DNA of 46,657 bases from a virus: the UHGV virus genome UHGV-0180138; one strand, given 5' to 3'. This document shows, piece after piece, positions 1 through 36,699 of this stretch; positions within the stretch are counted from its first letter, which is position 1, and each line of letters opens with the position of its first letter. The notes under the pieces are model-generated. The model searched no databases and was not told the DNA's origin. It saw nothing but the letters and a program-made list of their open reading frames with translations. The translations under genes were made by a program, and so were the position numbers.

Positions 1-431
1 TCATGACCCTGACATGACCCGGTCATGACCCCATCATGACCCTTAGGCGGCAAACTAGTTAGTTCACCTGAAGAAATCTTTTCCCTTAGATCTCTTATGG
101 CGTTTCTATATCCACTCTTTGAAGTCATTGATTGGTCTAATCTTTTTGCTAACGACAGACATCTCACGACACCATGCGAGCAATCGAATAAACCAACTTC
201 GATGAAGTATCTCATCATTTCTTCTACACGTTTCGGAGTTGATCCGACGTTACGGGCAATAATTCTCGCATCGTGTTTTAGTTCGAATGTCAGATTATGT
301 TGGTCTACTTCGTAAGCTATTAACTCGATGCAATACCAGTAAAGACCGTACCCTTCCAGACCATAATCAAGCAAAACGTTTTGAAGTTTTTCGTCGCGGT
401 TCGCATCGCTATCGTGCTTAAACCACTTCAT
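1..431 (-). CDS. replication initiator / replisome-organizer-like protein (truncated by left window edge)
   Basis: Open frame from ATG at 431-429 (minus) running off the window edge; N-terminus MKWFKHDSDANRDEKLQNVLLDYGLEGYGLYWYCIELIAY resembles phage replisome-organizer/DnaD-like N-terminal domains; start 2 nt after stop of upstream gene (coupled); not in ORF track because it is open-ended. Confidence 0.45.
   Translation of the reverse strand, partial: MKWFKHDSDANRDEKLQNVLLDYGLEGYGLYWYCIELIAYEVDQHNLTFELKHDARIIARNVGSTPKRVEEMMRYFIEVGLFDCSHGVVRCLSLAKRLDQSMTSKSGYRNAIRDLREKISSGELTSLPPKGHDGVMTGSCQGH
2..45. repeat. iteron-like repeats: four copies of CATGACCC at 11-bp period, including perfect palindrome GGTCATGACC
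   Basis: Direct reading: tcATGACCctgacATGACCcGGTCATGACCccatcATGACCctt; lies inside the replication-protein reading frame, analogous to ori-lambda iterons inside gene O. Confidence 0.4.
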
Positions 432-688: not shown

Positions 689-994
689 TGATTTTTCTCC
701 TATGGTTAAAATGAACGCGCTGGCGGATATCCCATTATCATTAGATAGCAGTGATTGACCGCTTAACAGATCCCGCCGTTGCGTGATATTTGTTTTTCGC
801 TTCGCAGCGACACCTGGTTTTTAAAGAGCATAAGGTATGCGCCTTTTTGTGCTATTCCGTTATCTTTTTTCTTGCGTCTTTGCAACTATGGCCTTACCTT
901 GTCTGCAAGTTTACAGAATGGCGTTTTTGGGTCAAGACTTGAAAAATACATTTTGTGACTTGTATCAAACTTTTTGAGGTTATAGGGTAGCGAC
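689..994. promoter_or_regulatory. divergent control region between leftward replication operon and rightward repressor gene
   Basis: 306-bp non-coding gap between divergently oriented genes; contains variant GTTTACAGAATGGCG motif (909-923) and a TTTTTCGCTTCGCAGCG stretch (about 803-822) resembling the element at 23859 and 36726. Confidence 0.5.
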
Positions 995-1765: not shown

Positions 1766-1794
1766 TTGACTCGATGTTTTACGGGGCGTATATT
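1766..1794 (+). promoter_or_regulatory. sigma70-type early rightward promoter
   Basis: TTGACT (1766-1771) - 17 nt spacer - TATATT (1789-1794); near-consensus. Confidence 0.65.
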
Positions 1795-2048
1795 GCGAGT
1801 CAAAGGAAGGGCGCAGGTAACAAAAGCAACTTCCTGGCACTTTAAAAATCAGGCTTAACACCTTGTCAACCGTGGAGTAACTCCCCGATGGGGGACCGAA
1901 AGCGGCACTGATAACAAGGCGCATGGGGTGTTTAAAGCGTTACATCCCCCACGAAACCGCACGCAAGGCGACGAGTCAGCTTGCTTGGAGTGAGCAAGGT
2001 CACGCCGGGAACGGCGATGATTGCGGGATTAGTTGAAAGATGTTAAGC

Positions 2049-2086
2049 CGCTCATTAACAATCTGGTCAGCCGCTGGAAGTGCGGC
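2049..2086 (+). promoter_or_regulatory. nut-like site: boxA-like CGCTCATTAA plus boxB-like hairpin
   Basis: CGCTCATTAA (2049-2058) resembles lambda boxA CGCTCTTAA; 11 nt later GCCGC-tggaagt-GCGGC hairpin (2070-2086); sits in a roughly 350-nt leader with several stem-loops between the promoter and the first gene. Confidence 0.35.
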
Positions 2087-2141
2087 AATTAACGAAGATG
2101 ATTTTTATTAATTTTCATCAAGGATATACGGAGATCAGATT

Positions 2142-2432
2142 ATGAGCGTTACAATTATGTATGGCAAATGTGACAGTAAACTGAATGCCAGGGAACGCAG
2201 AAGGATAAAAAGAGAAAACGAAAGAAAATCATCACCTGCAATCAATAAAACAGACAATGTGGATAAAGCTATTCGATTTGCAAACGAGGAAAGATGCAAA
2301 CCAAATAGCATTAAAGAACGTCGCAAAGGGCCAGTAAAATGGTATACGGAAAATGAAAGCGGCAGCTACTACCACGCAACGCAACCACGCCATTTAGGGG
2401 AAAAACCCCTGGATAAAGTCCGCTACCATTAA
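2142..2432 (+). CDS. small basic protein with arginine-rich motif, N-like antiterminator candidate
   Basis: 96 aa; NARERRRIKRENERK resembles the arginine-rich RNA-binding motif of lambda/P22 N; first gene after nut-like leader; SD GGAGA. Confidence 0.45.
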   Translation: MSVTIMYGKCDSKLNARERRRIKRENERKSSPAINKTDNVDKAIRFANEERCKPNSIKERRKGPVKWYTENESGSYYHATQPRHLGEKPLDKVRYH

Positions 2433-2585: not shown

Positions 2586-3247
2586 AAACAGAGTTACATA
2601 AAAAACTATGGACGATTCAGCAAACGCTGAACGCGCCGAAGAATCAGCGTAATAATTTTGGCGGGTATAATTACAGGTCGGCGGAGGATATTTTAGAGGC
2701 GGTTAAACCACTGCTTCAAAATATCACGCTGACTGTTAGTGATGAAATTGTCCTGATCGGCAATCGCTATTATGTGAAAGCTACGGCGACGCTAAGCGAC
2801 GGTGAAGACGTAATAGCGGTAACTGCTTATGCCAGGGAGGAAGAAAGCAAGAAGGGTATGGATGCCAGCCAGCTAACAGGAGCAACATCAAGTTACGCGC
2901 GGAAATATGCTTTGAACGGTTTATTCTGCATAGATGATGCTCGCGATCCTGATACTGATGCTTACGCGAAGCAGACAGGCCAGCAGCCGCGACAACAGAA
3001 AAACCCACCAAAACAACAACCTAAGCAGCAAGGGCAACAACAAGGTCAGCAGCCGAAAGCGCCGCCAAATCCTGATGAAGTGTTGGCGCGTTTCTGTGAT
3101 GCGGCAGCGAAAGCGCCGGACGCTAACAAGTTGCGCGAGATCTTCGGCAAGTGCTGGAAGCTACTGCCTAAAGATTCAGAACAGCAACAGAAAGCGAAAG
3201 ACGTTTATGACATTCGCTTAAAAGAAATTAACGGGGAGATCAGTTAA
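2582..3247 (+). CDS. erf: Erf-family single-strand annealing protein
   Basis: 221 aa; GATSSYARKYALNGLF motif typical of Erf family; GTG start with AAGGAG SD; Gln/Pro-rich linker before C-terminal domain. Confidence 0.8.
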   Translation: MKTELHKKLWTIQQTLNAPKNQRNNFGGYNYRSAEDILEAVKPLLQNITLTVSDEIVLIGNRYYVKATATLSDGEDVIAVTAYAREEESKKGMDASQLTGATSSYARKYALNGLFCIDDARDPDTDAYAKQTGQQPRQQKNPPKQQPKQQGQQQGQQPKAPPNPDEVLARFCDAAAKAPDANKLREIFGKCWKLLPKDSEQQQKAKDVYDIRLKEINGEIS

Positions 3248-6469: not shown

Positions 6470-6662
6470 ACGCTATAAAGAATGGAAAATACCGGAATCA
6501 GCAACAAAAGCAGCGCCAGGAAATCATTCTGGTGTTTACTTTTTTATGGATGGCAAATGGTATTTCGGCAGCAGGCCAGATCGCTATTATCAGGAAATAT
6601 GCAAGCCTCACGTATGGGATATTAAAGAGCGCGTGAAAGGCGGTGTGATTGAGGACGTTTAG
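6459..6662 (+). CDS. hypothetical protein
   Basis: 67-aa ORF. Confidence 0.5.
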   Translation: MKYKRYKEWKIPESATKAAPGNHSGVYFFMDGKWYFGSRPDRYYQEICKPHVWDIKERVKGGVIEDV

Positions 6663-9880: not shown

Positions 9881-9961
9881 GTTTACAAAATGGCGTCATT
9901 GCGTGATGCGGATCACATAATGGCGCTTTTTGCCTTGTTTTGGGGTATCCATTTTGTATAC
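9881..9961. promoter_or_regulatory. inverted pair of conserved motif (GTTTACAAAATGGCG at 9881-9895 plus; GTATACAAAATGGA at 9961-9948 minus)
   Basis: Direct reading; intergenic gap after methyltransferase gene. Confidence 0.5.
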
Positions 9962-10038
9962 TTCAAGCAAACAAAATGCTCTTTAAAAATCCGGCAGCGC
10001 TGAAATGCGTAGAAATCACCTGAAAAGGAGAGAGCATT

Positions 10039-10215
10039 ATGTCTTTTGATGATTACCAATGGCATGACGACTATGAACGAGAAAGCGTCATGCGTGCAAT
10101 GTGCAATGTATGCAGCACGAAGAAAGGAGGCTGTAACGAGTGCAACGAATGCTTAGATCATTGGCTAAGGGCCGGACACGCCGAAAGGCTGAACGAAACA
10201 GAGAATCAAAAATAA
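10039..10215 (+). CDS. small Cys-rich protein (58 aa), zinc-ribbon-like
   Basis: ATG with SD AAGGAGAG; CNVCSTKKGGCNECNEC; below track cutoff. Confidence 0.4.
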   Translation: MSFDDYQWHDDYERESVMRAMCNVCSTKKGGCNECNECLDHWLRAGHAERLNETENQK

Positions 10216-10229
10216 TCGGGGTGGTTTTT

Positions 10230-10835
10230 ATGCAAAACCCTAAAAAACCCATAAGACGCCGTTGCAAATGCTGCGGCGTTTTTTTTGAGCCTAAATATCA
10301 CAATCAAACGTGGTGCAGCGATGAATGTCTGGAAGAACTGAAGTTTGATCAGCTATGTCGCGACCGTGAGAAGGCTATGAAGGCTATGGAGCGGAAGAAA
10401 CGCCGGGATAGCCAGCGTGAAGAACGCAACCGGAAGCGTAAACAGTTAAATCCGCGTAGTTATTGGTTAAAGCAGGCGCAATCGGTATTTAATGCATATA
10501 TCCGCGAACGCGACGCGGGTCAGCCGTGTATATCTTGCGGGACTTATTACGGCGATCAGTGTTCCTGGGATGCCGGGCACTATAGAACGGTTGCTGCCGC
10601 AGGGCACCTTCGTTTTAACGAAGATAACTGCCATCGCCAATGCAGGCACTGCAACCAGACATTAGACGGCAACATAGCAGCTTATCGCCCTGCACTGATT
10701 AGAAAAATTGGCCTCGCCAGGGTGGAAGCGCTGGAGAACAACAACGATACGCATAAATGGACGATCGAAGAATGTAAAGAGATTATAAAAATCTATCAGG
10801 CGAAATTGGACGCCTTAAGGAGAAAGGCAGCATGA
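10230..10835 (+). CDS. ninG: NinG/Rap-family recombination endonuclease
   Basis: Strong similarity pattern to lambda NinG (CISCG...WDAGHYRT...LRFNE...HRWTIEECK); start at in-frame ATG 10230 within track ORF. Confidence 0.8.
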   Translation: MQNPKKPIRRRCKCCGVFFEPKYHNQTWCSDECLEELKFDQLCRDREKAMKAMERKKRRDSQREERNRKRKQLNPRSYWLKQAQSVFNAYIRERDAGQPCISCGTYYGDQCSWDAGHYRTVAAAGHLRFNEDNCHRQCRHCNQTLDGNIAAYRPALIRKIGLARVEALENNNDTHKWTIEECKEIIKIYQAKLDALRRKAA

Positions 10836-11239: not shown

Positions 11240-11418
11240 AAAACGAAGTTAAAGATCTGCAAATAGATATTCAGCGCGACGAACGTGATTTAGAGACGGT
11301 CCGACAAATCCAGGCTTTCCACATGCGCGAATTACTTGCGCTGAAAGAGTTTGAAAGAAAGCTGGTGCAATCCATTTCTGATCGTAAATGCCTTATTGCT
11401 CGTTACGGGGGGAAATAA
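11236..11418 (+). CDS. hypothetical protein
   Basis: 60-aa ORF. Confidence 0.45.
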   Translation: MKNEVKDLQIDIQRDERDLETVRQIQAFHMRELLALKEFERKLVQSISDRKCLIARYGGK

Positions 11419-12140
11419 TGAATTTAGAATCCATTCTGAAATTCCACTTCCCAAAATCACCGCGATTATCAGACGAAAGCCGGGGAACATCACCTGATGC
11501 ACTTAATACTACTGATGCGCTTACCGCCGCTGGTATGGCGCAATCGCGCGTAGAGCTTGGTTATAGCGCTTTTCTAGGGAAGATGGAACTATCACAAGCC
11601 GAAAAACACAGGGCCGTAGTTTTGCTTACAGAGCGTTTAAGAGCTATGGCAAAAGATTACGAATACGTCATGGAACTGGAGGAGAGCCAGCGCAATGATT
11701 TTATTATTCTTGTTGCCGTTTTCGCGTTTCGGGATTATTGCCAAAGCGCCGCGACGGAAAAAACTTGTATGGAGTGCGGCGGATATAAATTTACGTTTGA
11801 CGAATACGGAGAAAAACACCTTTGCAAAAAATGCAAGGGGCACGGGAAAGTTCGCAATCATTGTAAACAATGCAAGGGGCGCGGCGAGATACCGGATAAA
11901 ACAGCCAGCAATGCGGCAGAAATGCCAGTCTTCAAAACGTGCCAGCACTGTGGCGGGCGCGGGTACTCGCGTTTCCCGGTAGATCTCGTCCGGCAGGCTG
12001 TTAACCAGCTTGTTTTCCCGGTAAGCCGATCAACATGGTGGAAGAAATACAGGGTTTTCTATGAGGACGCCATAGCGGAGCTATTCAAAGAAGAAGCCCG
12101 CGCGGAAAGCGAAATCAAGCGAGTGACACGGGGTGAATAA
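11418..12140 (+). CDS. Q-like late regulator candidate with four CxxCxGxG zinc-finger repeats
   Basis: Follows ninG-rusA as Q does in lambdoid phages; CMECGG/CKKCKGHG/CKQCKGRG/CQHCGGRG; start ATG 11418 overlaps upstream stop; function inferred from position. Confidence 0.35.
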   Translation: MNLESILKFHFPKSPRLSDESRGTSPDALNTTDALTAAGMAQSRVELGYSAFLGKMELSQAEKHRAVVLLTERLRAMAKDYEYVMELEESQRNDFIILVAVFAFRDYCQSAATEKTCMECGGYKFTFDEYGEKHLCKKCKGHGKVRNHCKQCKGRGEIPDKTASNAAEMPVFKTCQHCGGRGYSRFPVDLVRQAVNQLVFPVSRSTWWKKYRVFYEDAIAELFKEEARAESEIKRVTRGE

Positions 12141-12340
12141 TGGATAAGCTGGAAATAAACGATCAGTTCGCTGTTATCTTATTTGAAGACAAAACAGGCG
12201 GCGCATGGTGTAAGAAAGTTACTGGTGCGGAAGCGCGTTTAATATTAGGTATGGCAAGCGCGTTAAATGAAGGCGAATTGCCTGCCATTCCTGTTAAGCC
12301 AGTGCATATCTATAAGCGGGGCGATGATGAAAATAATTAA
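12140..12340 (+). CDS. hypothetical protein
   Basis: 66-aa ORF. Confidence 0.45.
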   Translation: MDKLEINDQFAVILFEDKTGGAWCKKVTGAEARLILGMASALNEGELPAIPVKPVHIYKRGDDENN

Positions 12341-13234: not shown

Positions 13235-13446
13235 AAAAAGCTGGCCTGTCAATTAACCGCGTATTGTGCGGCGACGAAAACGAGATCCGCATAGAAATTA
13301 AATTTAGCACAGGTAAAGAGATAATCCTTTACACGACACCTGAAAACCTGACGCTGGCACTTACTGGTAAATCTGAAACGCCGTGCGACGTCAGGTTACG
13401 CAATATTGAAATCAAGGAATTAAGGAAGGGTAAAAATGAAAAGTAA
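13231..13446 (+). CDS. hypothetical protein
   Basis: 71-aa ORF. Confidence 0.45.
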   Translation: MKKAGLSINRVLCGDENEIRIEIKFSTGKEIILYTTPENLTLALTGKSETPCDVRLRNIEIKELRKGKNEK

Positions 13447-13654
13447 CCGTAAACGCCTGGTAAGGGCGTACGATAAAGCATTAAAGGCTTTTGATGACCT
13501 GCGACACAATAAGCGCCAGCGCCGCAAGTGGGCGCGAATGCTTGTTAATGAATGGCATTATCCTGATGCTGCCTTGATAGAAGGCGCACCGCCATTTACA
13601 CAGGAGCAAGCCGACGAAGTGGCTAACGATAACGTTTACTATATGATGTGGTGA
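13436..13654 (+). CDS. hypothetical protein, paralog A of tandem pair
   Basis: MKSNRKRLVRAYDKAL...DNVYYMMW; first 17 nt identical to next gene. Confidence 0.55.
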   Translation: MKSNRKRLVRAYDKALKAFDDLRHNKRQRRKWARMLVNEWHYPDAALIEGAPPFTQEQADEVANDNVYYMMW

Positions 13655-13658
13655 CAAT

Positions 13659-13895
13659 ATGAAAAGTAACCGTAAGCGCATGATAAGAGCATATGATAGA
13701 GCGTTAATCGAATTTAACGAACTATCACGCAGTAAGCGCCGCCGCAGACAATTCGCGCGACTTCTTTTTCATGTATGGCACGACGCTGATTTCTTTTTTG
13801 ATGCCAGACATATAACACAGGAAGATGCGGATAATATAGCTTACGATAACGTTTACTACATATTAAGAAGGTGGGAATATGAAAATAATCATTGA
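13659..13895 (+). CDS. hypothetical protein, paralog B of tandem pair
   Basis: MKSNRKRMIRAYDRAL...DNVYYILRRW. Confidence 0.55.
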   Translation: MKSNRKRMIRAYDRALIEFNELSRSKRRRRQFARLLFHVWHDADFFFDARHITQEDADNIAYDNVYYILRRWEYENNH

Positions 13896-36684: not shown

Positions 36685-36699
36685 GCCATTTTGTAAACT
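36685..36699 (-). promoter_or_regulatory. conserved motif AGTTTACAAAATGGC (minus orientation) at head of leftward cassette
   Basis: Reverse complement of GCCATTTTGTAAACT; oriented with the leftward genes. Confidence 0.5.

Follow-up and report, generated by a model that had tools for sequence, protein, structure and literature searches.

An N-like gp17 locus, its nut sites, and an optional leader RNA domain in a temperate coliphage genome of the mEp021 group

The DNA analysed here is UHGV virus genome UHGV-0180138 (46,657 nt; hereafter the window, to which all positions refer, on the plus strand unless stated otherwise). Between positions 1766 and 2432 it carries a sigma70 promoter, a leader of approximately 341 nt containing a nut site (nutR1), and a gene for a basic 96-aa protein, the homologue of Gp17 of Escherichia phage mEp021. 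An earlier note, made from the sequence alone, had proposed that this arrangement provides N-type antitermination at the head of the rightward operon, and that proposal is supported by the identity to mEp021 Gp17, the presence of R17, R19, R20, and R24, and the conservation of nutR1. We regard it as highly probable that the locus comprises the early promoter, nutR1, and an N-like gp17 that together head the early rightward operon of an mEp021-group phage and confer N-type processive antitermination.

The early locus and its gp17 gene

The region 1600–2600 has 93.7–97.3% nucleotide identity to the Escherichia phages mEp021, mEp010, mEp515, and MagusPhagus, and patchier similarity to mEp013, mEp044, and mEp554; the leader also occurs, as prophage, in 35 complete E. 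coli genomes, at up to 99.8% identity. The window is that of a temperate coliphage of the mEpimmI group (mEp021 group), members of which have been described as Nus-dependent and non-lambdoid (Front Microbiol 2025; PMC11893012). The counterpart of the 96-aa open reading frame (ORF) in the mEp021 record is mEp021_17, which has the repressor gene mEp021_15 and its terminator on one side and, on the other, a small ORF followed by the Erf and SSB genes. The MagusPhagus record labels its Gp17 homologue “anti-termination protein N-like protein”.

PMC11893012, which cites Valencia-Toxqui et al. (2023, Arch Virol 168:92), attributes early antitermination in mEp021 to Gp17 and describes this protein as N-lambda-like. 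According to the same paper, the targets of Gp17 are nutL and nutR1, located upstream of the repressor gene and of gp17, respectively, and nutR2, located downstream of a cytosine methyltransferase gene; arginines 17, 19, 20, and 24 are listed as fully conserved, and Nus-factor dependence is reported for the mEp phage collection; a Q-like protein is also reported in mEpimmI phages (PMC11893012). The supplements of that paper give no nut sequences. The Gp17/nut antitermination system at this locus is already known, by experiment in the 95%-identical mEp021, and nothing essential differs in the window, which represents another member of the group. The two share the gene, the arginines of the arginine-rich motif (ARM), and the three nut positions, as well as the neighbours: the repressor gene upstream, Kil-like, Erf, and SSB genes downstream, and Q further on. 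The window carries the long form of the leader, as do mEp021, mEp010, and mEp515, and its boxA has U5 changed to A. The value of this core result lies in confirmation and annotation, many database records still describing Gp17 and the leader as “hypothetical protein”.

The early rightward promoter (TTGACT-17-TATATT; 1766–1794), already picked out in the earlier note, matches the sigma70 consensus at 10 of 12 positions, and transcription would start near position 1801. By score alone the match is not significant, 5 kb of this AT-rich DNA holding 14 promoter-like sites against 8.6 +/- 2.6 in shuffles. The promoter is supported instead by conservation, because both hexamers and the 17-nt spacing are constant among relatives while the spacer sequence diverges. 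A distant relative that encodes a 115-aa Gp17-like protein (L105) has TTGCAT-16-TATAGT at the equivalent position.

The gp17 homologue (2142–2432) is preceded by the Shine-Dalgarno sequence GGAG (2131–2134), 7 nt ahead of the ATG at 2142, and a ribosome-binding site is annotated in mEp021. The ORF begins MSVTIMYGKCDSKLNARERRRIKRENERK and encodes the basic protein with an arginine-rich motif that had been claimed: lysine and arginine account for 24 residues, versus 13 for aspartate and glutamate (net charge approximately +11), and the ARM, NARERRRIKRENERK, occupies residues 15–29 (2184–2228), with R17, R19, R20, R21, and R24 present. At the amino-acid level it is 92.7–96.9% identical to Gp17 from six mEp phages and from MagusPhagus; R17, R20, and R24 are invariant in the family alignment, and R19 is nearly so. 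The protein matches PHROG 271 (“anti-termination protein N-like”) over residues 1–95 (E = 1.2e-11), a family that P22 gp24 matches too (6.9e-40). The N-termini of Gp17 and P22 gp24 are identical at 10 of 20 positions (MSVTIMYGK...NARERR against MTV-ITYGK...NAKTRR). Furthermore, 15 of 18 members of the Gp17 family weakly match Pfam N_peptide (best 4.8e-4), on which P22 gp24 scores 152 bits and which it defines. Judged by these sequence comparisons, Gp17 is a remote homologue of P22 gp24.

The Gp17 family, which forms 32 clusters at 90% identity, is very narrow, since a profile search of 1.84 billion representative proteins returned four Gp17-family matches; one 115-aa distant relative gave an extra locus. 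A profile search with the Gp17 alignment against contigs, one genome per species, returned no relatives, and a sequence search of the PDB with Gp17 returned noise only.

The nut sites and their variation among relatives

nutR1 consists of a boxA (GCUCAUUAACAA; 2050–2061), with one mismatch to GCUCUUUAACAA, and a boxB hairpin (GCCGC-UGGAAGU-GCGGC; 2070–2086) with a GGAA core of the GNRA class. The boxA-like decamer that the earlier note had placed 11 nt ahead of a boxB-like hairpin is indeed present (CGCTCATTAA; 2049–2058), the full element being GCTCATTAACAA (2050–2061). The window was scanned for composite sites, defined as a boxA with no more than two mismatches, a gap of 4–12 nt, and a hairpin of at least 4 bp with GNRA in the loop; this was preferred to a covariance model of the nut site because MAFFT misregistered 4-bp against 5-bp boxB stems. 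Exactly three sites were found in 46.7 kb (2050 plus, 9978 plus, and 829 minus), against a mean of 0.115 in 200 dinucleotide shuffles, and for sites with no more than one boxA mismatch (all three qualify) the shuffle mean is 0.01. The boxA 12-mer GCTCTTTAACAA is uninformative by itself (seven matches with no more than two mismatches, versus 4.8 expected), and the energy of the isolated short hairpin is not significant either for nutR1 (z = -0.4) or for the authentic nutL of P22 (z = -0.9). The site at 2050 is the sole combination of boxA and GNRA hairpin that the scan finds upstream of gp17.

The other two sites share the boxA GCUCUUUAAAAA and a 7-nt spacer. The minus-strand site (797–829) has its boxA at 829–818 and the boxB UCGCU-GCGA-AGCGA at 810–797; it sits downstream of a leftward promoter-like site (935–908), and its position upstream of the repressor gene matches that of the published nutL. 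The plus-strand site (9978–10010) has its boxA at 9978–9989 and the boxB GCGC-UGAAAU-GCGU at 9997–10010, upstream of a 58-aa ORF at 10039 (NinF in mEp021), ninG, rusA, and Q; in mEp021 the counterpart follows the cytosine methyltransferase gene, which is the published position of nutR2. The homologous boxA elements of mEp021 are located at 12225 (nutR1), 20172 (nutR2), and 11001 on the minus strand (nutL). nutR1 and nutR2 are separated by 7947 bp in mEp021 and by 7928 bp here; the distance in mEp021 is reportedly “more than 7.9 kbp”. By position, the three scan sites correspond to the published nutR1, nutR2, and nutL.

A comparison with the nut sites of related phages, which had been suggested as a check, shows a boxA core that is kept and a boxB stem that changes in compensatory fashion. 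Loci with both the promoter and the gp17 start numbered 105 (from phage records, E. coli genomes, IMG/VR, Logan/ENA assemblies, and metagenomes, some contigs being duplicates) and yielded 39 distinct leaders, five of them new from the metagenome scan. The boxA and boxB of nutR1 are kept in every relative, even in those without most of the leader. No short leader and no distant relative has a change in the boxA core GCUCUUUAA, and the complete boxA GCUCUUUAACAA is matched perfectly by most relatives, among them all those with short leaders and the distant L100, L101, L102, and L105. The boxB stem is replaced wholesale among relatives, with pairing kept and the GNRA core retained, and such wholesale compensatory change is the signature of a functional RNA hairpin.

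The replacement stems always carry a GAAA core, and the boxB versions occur with different ARMs. The boxB of the window, GCCGC-UGGAAGU-GCGGC, is paired with NARERRRIKRENERK; GCUAC-UGAAAU-GUAGC and GCAC-UGAAAU-GUGC with NAR[KA]RRRMKRAAEQD; UCGC-UGAAAU-GCGA with NARTIRRMKRRAAEQ; GCACU-GAAA-AGUGC and GCUCU-GAAA-AGAGC with NARERR[RK]LKRAGKVK; and CGCU-GAAA-AGCG with RIRAKHRRAMRRKELQRE, the ARM of the 115-aa relative. Unlike the boxB of nutR1, that of nutL (UCGCU-GCGA-AGCGA) is identical in phages of all four ARM types. This constancy suggests either that the ARMs recognise GNRA-type loops generically, which is probably the case, or that nutL and nutR1 are used differently. The natural series at nutR1 (five stem versions and three loop versions with four ARM versions, nutL remaining constant) constitutes a data set for ARM–GNRA recognition that goes beyond the literature consulted.

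One distant locus, L105 (positions 2700–3020 of ENA ERZ27253218 contig k141_244742), encodes the 115-aa relative with ARM RIRAKHRRAMRRKELQRE and keeps the whole unit: repressor terminator, the motif TACAAAATGG, promoter, exact boxA GCUCUUUAACAA, 7-nt spacer, and boxB CGCU-GAAA-AGCG. A nutL-like site was looked for in L105 between the leftward promoter and the cro-like gene, and none was found.

Two alternative pairings involve nutR1. GCCGC occurs twice (2047–2051 and 2070–2074), so that the 3' arm of boxB (GCGGC; 2082–2086) has an alternative partner just upstream of boxA; this partner wins in an isolated 47-nt fold, whereas in the full leader the upstream copy lies partly in the closing helix of the optional domain (described below) and boxB forms. 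Additionally, the boxA–boxB spacer AUCUGGUC (2061–2068) can form 8 bp with GAUCAGAU (2133–2140), between the Shine-Dalgarno sequence and the gp17 AUG. The pairing of AUCUGGUC with GAUCAGAU is predicted by RNAalifold and kept in type-1 leaders, but it is broken in type-2 leaders and was not adopted; it could link nut occupancy to gp17 translation, by analogy with lambda N autoregulation, or be a chance complementarity.

The optional domain of the gp17 leader

The leader extends for approximately 341 nt, from the presumed start near 1801 to the ATG at 2142, and its folding, another of the checks suggested, gave -111.7 kcal/mol (z = -3.3). The earlier description of a long structured leader is thereby borne out as to structure and length, with the qualification that approximately 215 nt of this leader are an optional module that the nut unit need not contain. 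The 39 distinct leaders fall into two length classes, 26 long (367–396 nt) and 13 short (155–183 nt), when length is counted up to the gp17 start from the conserved motif that immediately precedes the -35 hexamer. The short form is without approximately 215 nt (window positions ~1821–2037) and keeps the promoter, a purine-rich 5' segment of ~45 nt, boxA, boxB, and the ribosome-binding site. The leaders of mEp021, mEp010, and mEp515 are long, and those of mEp554, mEp013, and mEp044 are short. The insert is present or absent irrespective of boxB/ARM type, type 2 being represented by one short leader (L048) and three long ones (L004, L049, and L050). All the distant relatives (L100, L101, L102, and L105) have short leaders, which suggests that the short form is ancestral and the insert a discrete module.

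Three elements distinguish the long form. The first is a 5'-proximal hairpin (GGAAG...CUUCC; 1805–1834), found in the long-leader form only, which has a variable loop and corresponds to RNAalifold helix 1, with five invariant pairs. The second is an extra boxA-like element, GCACTTTAAAAATCAGG (1837–1853), predicted to be unpaired, which reproduces the 17-nt pattern of the nutL and nutR2 boxA plus spacer; the pattern GCNCTTTAAAAANCNGG has three matches in the window (813–829 minus, 1837–1853, and 9978–9994) versus 0.00 expected, and the element is invariant in all long leaders. The third is the structured domain itself (1852–2049), closed by a helix between GGCUUAACA (1852–1860) and UGUUAAGCC (2041–2049) and including a variable hairpin (1980–1998) and a GNRA hairpin (2003–2016). 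The domain is predicted to adopt a closed multi-branch fold (z = -2.8), in which the closing helix would set the extra boxA-like element beside the boxA of nutR1.

The core of the insert (1837–2049; 213 nt) has a mean pairwise identity of 0.981 with 10% variable columns and is locally the most conserved stretch, flanking segments having 23–75% variable columns (repressor gene 27%, gp17 39%, nutR1 43%). Among the 68 pairs counted in the domain and the 5'-proximal hairpin, only those of the hairpin 1980–1998 change on both sides, with three compensatory pairs and one U-A to U-G change, essentially in one lineage; the other helices never vary. The tetraloop of the hairpin 2003–2016 alternates between GGAA and GAAA, both of the GNRA class. 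Among the first five positions of the nutR1 boxA, 25 of 26 long leaders have deviations (GCUCA, AUUCU, or UCUCU), and none of the 13 short ones does. Behind this link between the long leader and a degenerate boxA are three or more changes that arose independently, but given the relatedness of the sequences the link is no more than suggestive.

We propose, tentatively, that the N leader contains, at 1837–2049, a cis-acting RNA module not described before, in which an extra boxA-like element of the nutL/nutR2 type is followed by a closed multi-branch domain; it is a plausible accessory RNA because of its conservation, the one covarying helix, and the extra boxA-like element. Such a module could serve as an additional site for loading Nus factors or as a put-like element; it could give protection from Rho or RNases; or it could be the precursor of a processed small RNA that tunes Gp17 expression. 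The likeness to HK022 put, an RNA with two stem-loops that modifies RNA polymerase with no need of a phage protein, is one of functional analogy only, and no put family was among the Rfam hits reported. If functional, the domain would be a new accessory element of N-type antitermination, beyond the literature consulted, in a stretch currently annotated as the protein gp16. The two strands of the insert fold about equally (z = -2.8 and -2.5), and G-U pairs together with a better-defined ensemble mildly favour the plus strand over an antisense alternative. ARAGORN found no tRNA or tmRNA genes. A hammerhead in the insert, sought by eye, was rejected, the CUGAUAA...GAAAC arrangement being without the essential G.

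The leader, or the domain 1837–2049, might instead be an independent or processed trans-acting small RNA outside the antitermination unit, as the earlier note had allowed; we consider this rather unlikely. The local conservation, the closed multi-branch fold, and the helix with compensatory changes would all suit such an RNA, as would the gain and loss of the domain as a unit, independently of nut type, and the quasi-continuous closing helix of ~22 bp suggested by the fold could be a substrate of RNase III. Against it, the plus strand has no intrinsic terminator within 1795–2141 and no supported internal promoter. Rfam gave no match in the whole window at gathering thresholds, and a search of 1640–2200 at E up to 10 gave nothing relevant and no plus-strand hit inside 1800–2050. 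The covariation is confined to a single helix and essentially one lineage. Furthermore, a 16-mer from the insert was found in IMG/VR only in this leader context (15 other matches, without further similarity, were attributed to chance), so that the domain has no occurrence there apart from the gp17 leader.

It is less probable still that the conserved insert exists to encode gp16, a 37-aa ORF (1923–2036) that is probably not coding. The ORF is open in the long leaders examined, has AAGG a few nucleotides ahead of its ATG, and is annotated as a coding sequence in mEp021 (as a hypothetical protein) and mEp010-type records. The pattern of change speaks against a protein: a hand count from alignments and translations gave ~11 nonsynonymous versus ~4 synonymous changes, including Q to W and G to C, and a five-codon block (LAWSEQG to ITWIEWC) coincides with the RNA-compensatory block, in which pairing is preserved. 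One sequence has lost the stop codon, gp16 has no Pfam or PHROG match, nucleotide conservation reaches well beyond the ORF (from 1837 to 1922), and the ORF is entirely missing from short-leader phages. Minus-strand ORFs of the insert are broken in some relatives.

Probable antitermination and the early operon

In N-type antitermination at this locus, the promoter at 1766–1794 would transcribe an untranslated leader carrying nutR1. If the locus works as in lambda and P22, the N-terminal arginine-rich helix of Gp17 would bind the boxB loop, of GNRA type, in the nascent transcript; host NusB and S10 would bind boxA, with NusA and NusG joining, and the complex would stay on RNA polymerase and allow read-through of downstream terminators into the kil, erf, and ssb recombination genes. 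Terminator-like sites do occur downstream on the plus strand (e.g., 6512–6536 and 10260–10278). nutR2 at 9978 would extend antitermination into the ninG–rusA–Q region, and nutL (829–797, minus strand) would serve the leftward operon likewise. The unit would be self-reinforcing, since gp17 comes first among the genes that follow its own nut site. The domain 1837–2049 is optional; as an accessory, its RNA might, more speculatively, modulate in cis the loading of Nus factors, the stability of the leader, or the access of Rho.

Several points weigh against this interpretation. The functional role of Gp17 in this phage is carried over from mEp021 on the strength of sequence similarity. The coordinates of the published nutR1 were deduced from the description “upstream of gp17”, from the presence of the site in all group members, and from the distance of more than 7.9 kb that is said to separate it from nutR2. 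With the sequence UGGAAGU, the nutR1 loop departs from the canonical boxB loop of 5 nt. The constancy of the nutL boxB across ARM types means that the co-variation of nutR1 and ARM is not proof of specificity. Gp17 scores 16.9 bits on Pfam PF25694 N_peptide (E = 0.0094), below the gathering threshold of 27.9 bits, and a tblastn search of 50,697 phage records with Gp17 found only seven mEpimmI phages and no lambdoid N. It is nonetheless very improbable that promoter and hairpins match by chance and that the basic ORF encodes an unrelated nucleic-acid-binding protein. A promoter match of 10/12 is common by itself, as is a short GC hairpin, but there are three composite sites versus 0.1 expected, conservation and compensation across lineages, the PHROG N-like match, and published genetics for the 95%-identical mEp021 Gp17.

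The original description of the unit as N-like stands, and is refined in that there are three nut sites and that the closest likeness is to P22 gp24 and nutL rather than to lambda N. P22 nutL consists of GCUCUUUAAC, 9 nt, and GCGCU-GACAA-AGCGC; its boxA core is identical to the core here, and the two systems share the order of boxA, a 7–9-nt spacer, and a 4–5-bp GC-rich hairpin with a loop that is GNRA or mimics GNRA. The P22 PL operon likewise has N first, followed by kil and erf. The systems differ in that Gp17 falls under the Pfam N_peptide threshold, and in that the loops here are true GNRA tetraloops flanked by U and U/A/G, whereas the P22 loop is a GACAA pentaloop. There are three nut sites here and two in P22; the structured part of the leader lies upstream of the nut site here, and between nut and gene in P22; and the repressor gene is co-oriented with the N operon here, with a terminator between them.

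The functional logic is shared with lambda: an ARM peptide acts with a boxA–boxB RNA, Nus factors are required (as reported for the mEp collection), the N leader is long and untranslated, and late genes have a Q of their own. Lambda N has no detectable sequence similarity to Gp17, and the window has one nut site more than lambda. The boxA here is of the longer GCUCUUUAACAA form, as in P22 nutL, a form that is also the E. coli rrn consensus; the lambda boxA is the shorter CGCUCUUA.

Upstream of the promoter lies a CI-like repressor gene (995–1642; HTH_3 and Peptidase_S24), on the same strand as the N-like operon and with only a terminator between. This layout differs from that of lambda, where the repressor gene sits between divergent PL and PR. 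The intrinsic terminator of the repressor gene (1648–1665) has a 7-bp stem with six GC pairs followed by TTTTCTTT, and a terminator is annotated at this position in mEp021, mEp554, and mEp013. The early promoter comes directly after it, and the terminator insulates the promoter from upstream transcription.

The motif TACAAAATGG adjoins the -35 hexamer (1755–1764) and is a candidate operator or regulator site. Allowing no more than one mismatch, it has 14 matches in the window versus 5.2 expected, a number reached in none of 100 shuffles, and the copy beside the -35 hexamer is conserved in all relatives, including the distant L105. Besides the copy at 1755–1764, copies are found at 912–921 (within the leftward promoter), 16646–16655, and 36686–36695, and as inverted pairs at 9884–9893/9949–9958 (just upstream of nutR2) and 33149–33158/33175–33184; longer versions (AAGTTTACAAAATGGCG) constitute repeat family D2. 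Operator or regulator function for TACAAAATGG may be suggested by this enrichment and conservation.

Directly after gp17 is a 40-aa ORF (2463–2585) with weak matches to Pfam Lambda_Kil (PF06301; E = 5e-5) and PHROG 2055 (4e-4); it belongs to the uncharacterised PHROG 34942 (9e-29), and relatives call it hypothetical. It is followed by 221-aa and 135-aa ORFs, annotated as Erf and SSB in relatives. The separate Q-like gene that the earlier note had mentioned is located at 11388–12140 and would encode a late antiterminator; it matches Pfam Antiterm (PF03589; E = 3.3e-29), and its mEp021 counterpart is annotated “late gene regulator Q”. In the window, NinG and RusA are upstream of Q, and nutR2 is ahead of both.

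Two sets of repeats were also observed. At the start of the window (1–42), four direct copies of CATGACCC with 11-bp phasing (starting at 2, 13, 24, and 35) occupy the place where the mEp021 “putative replication protein” gene would continue beyond the window; by analogy with lambda O, they look like origin iterons within a replication gene. Among small ORFs downstream of Q there is a 135-nt direct repeat (13433–13567 and 13656–13790; 72% identity, 223-nt spacing) and a second repeat pair (13598–13644 and 13815–13861), which suggests duplicated small genes.

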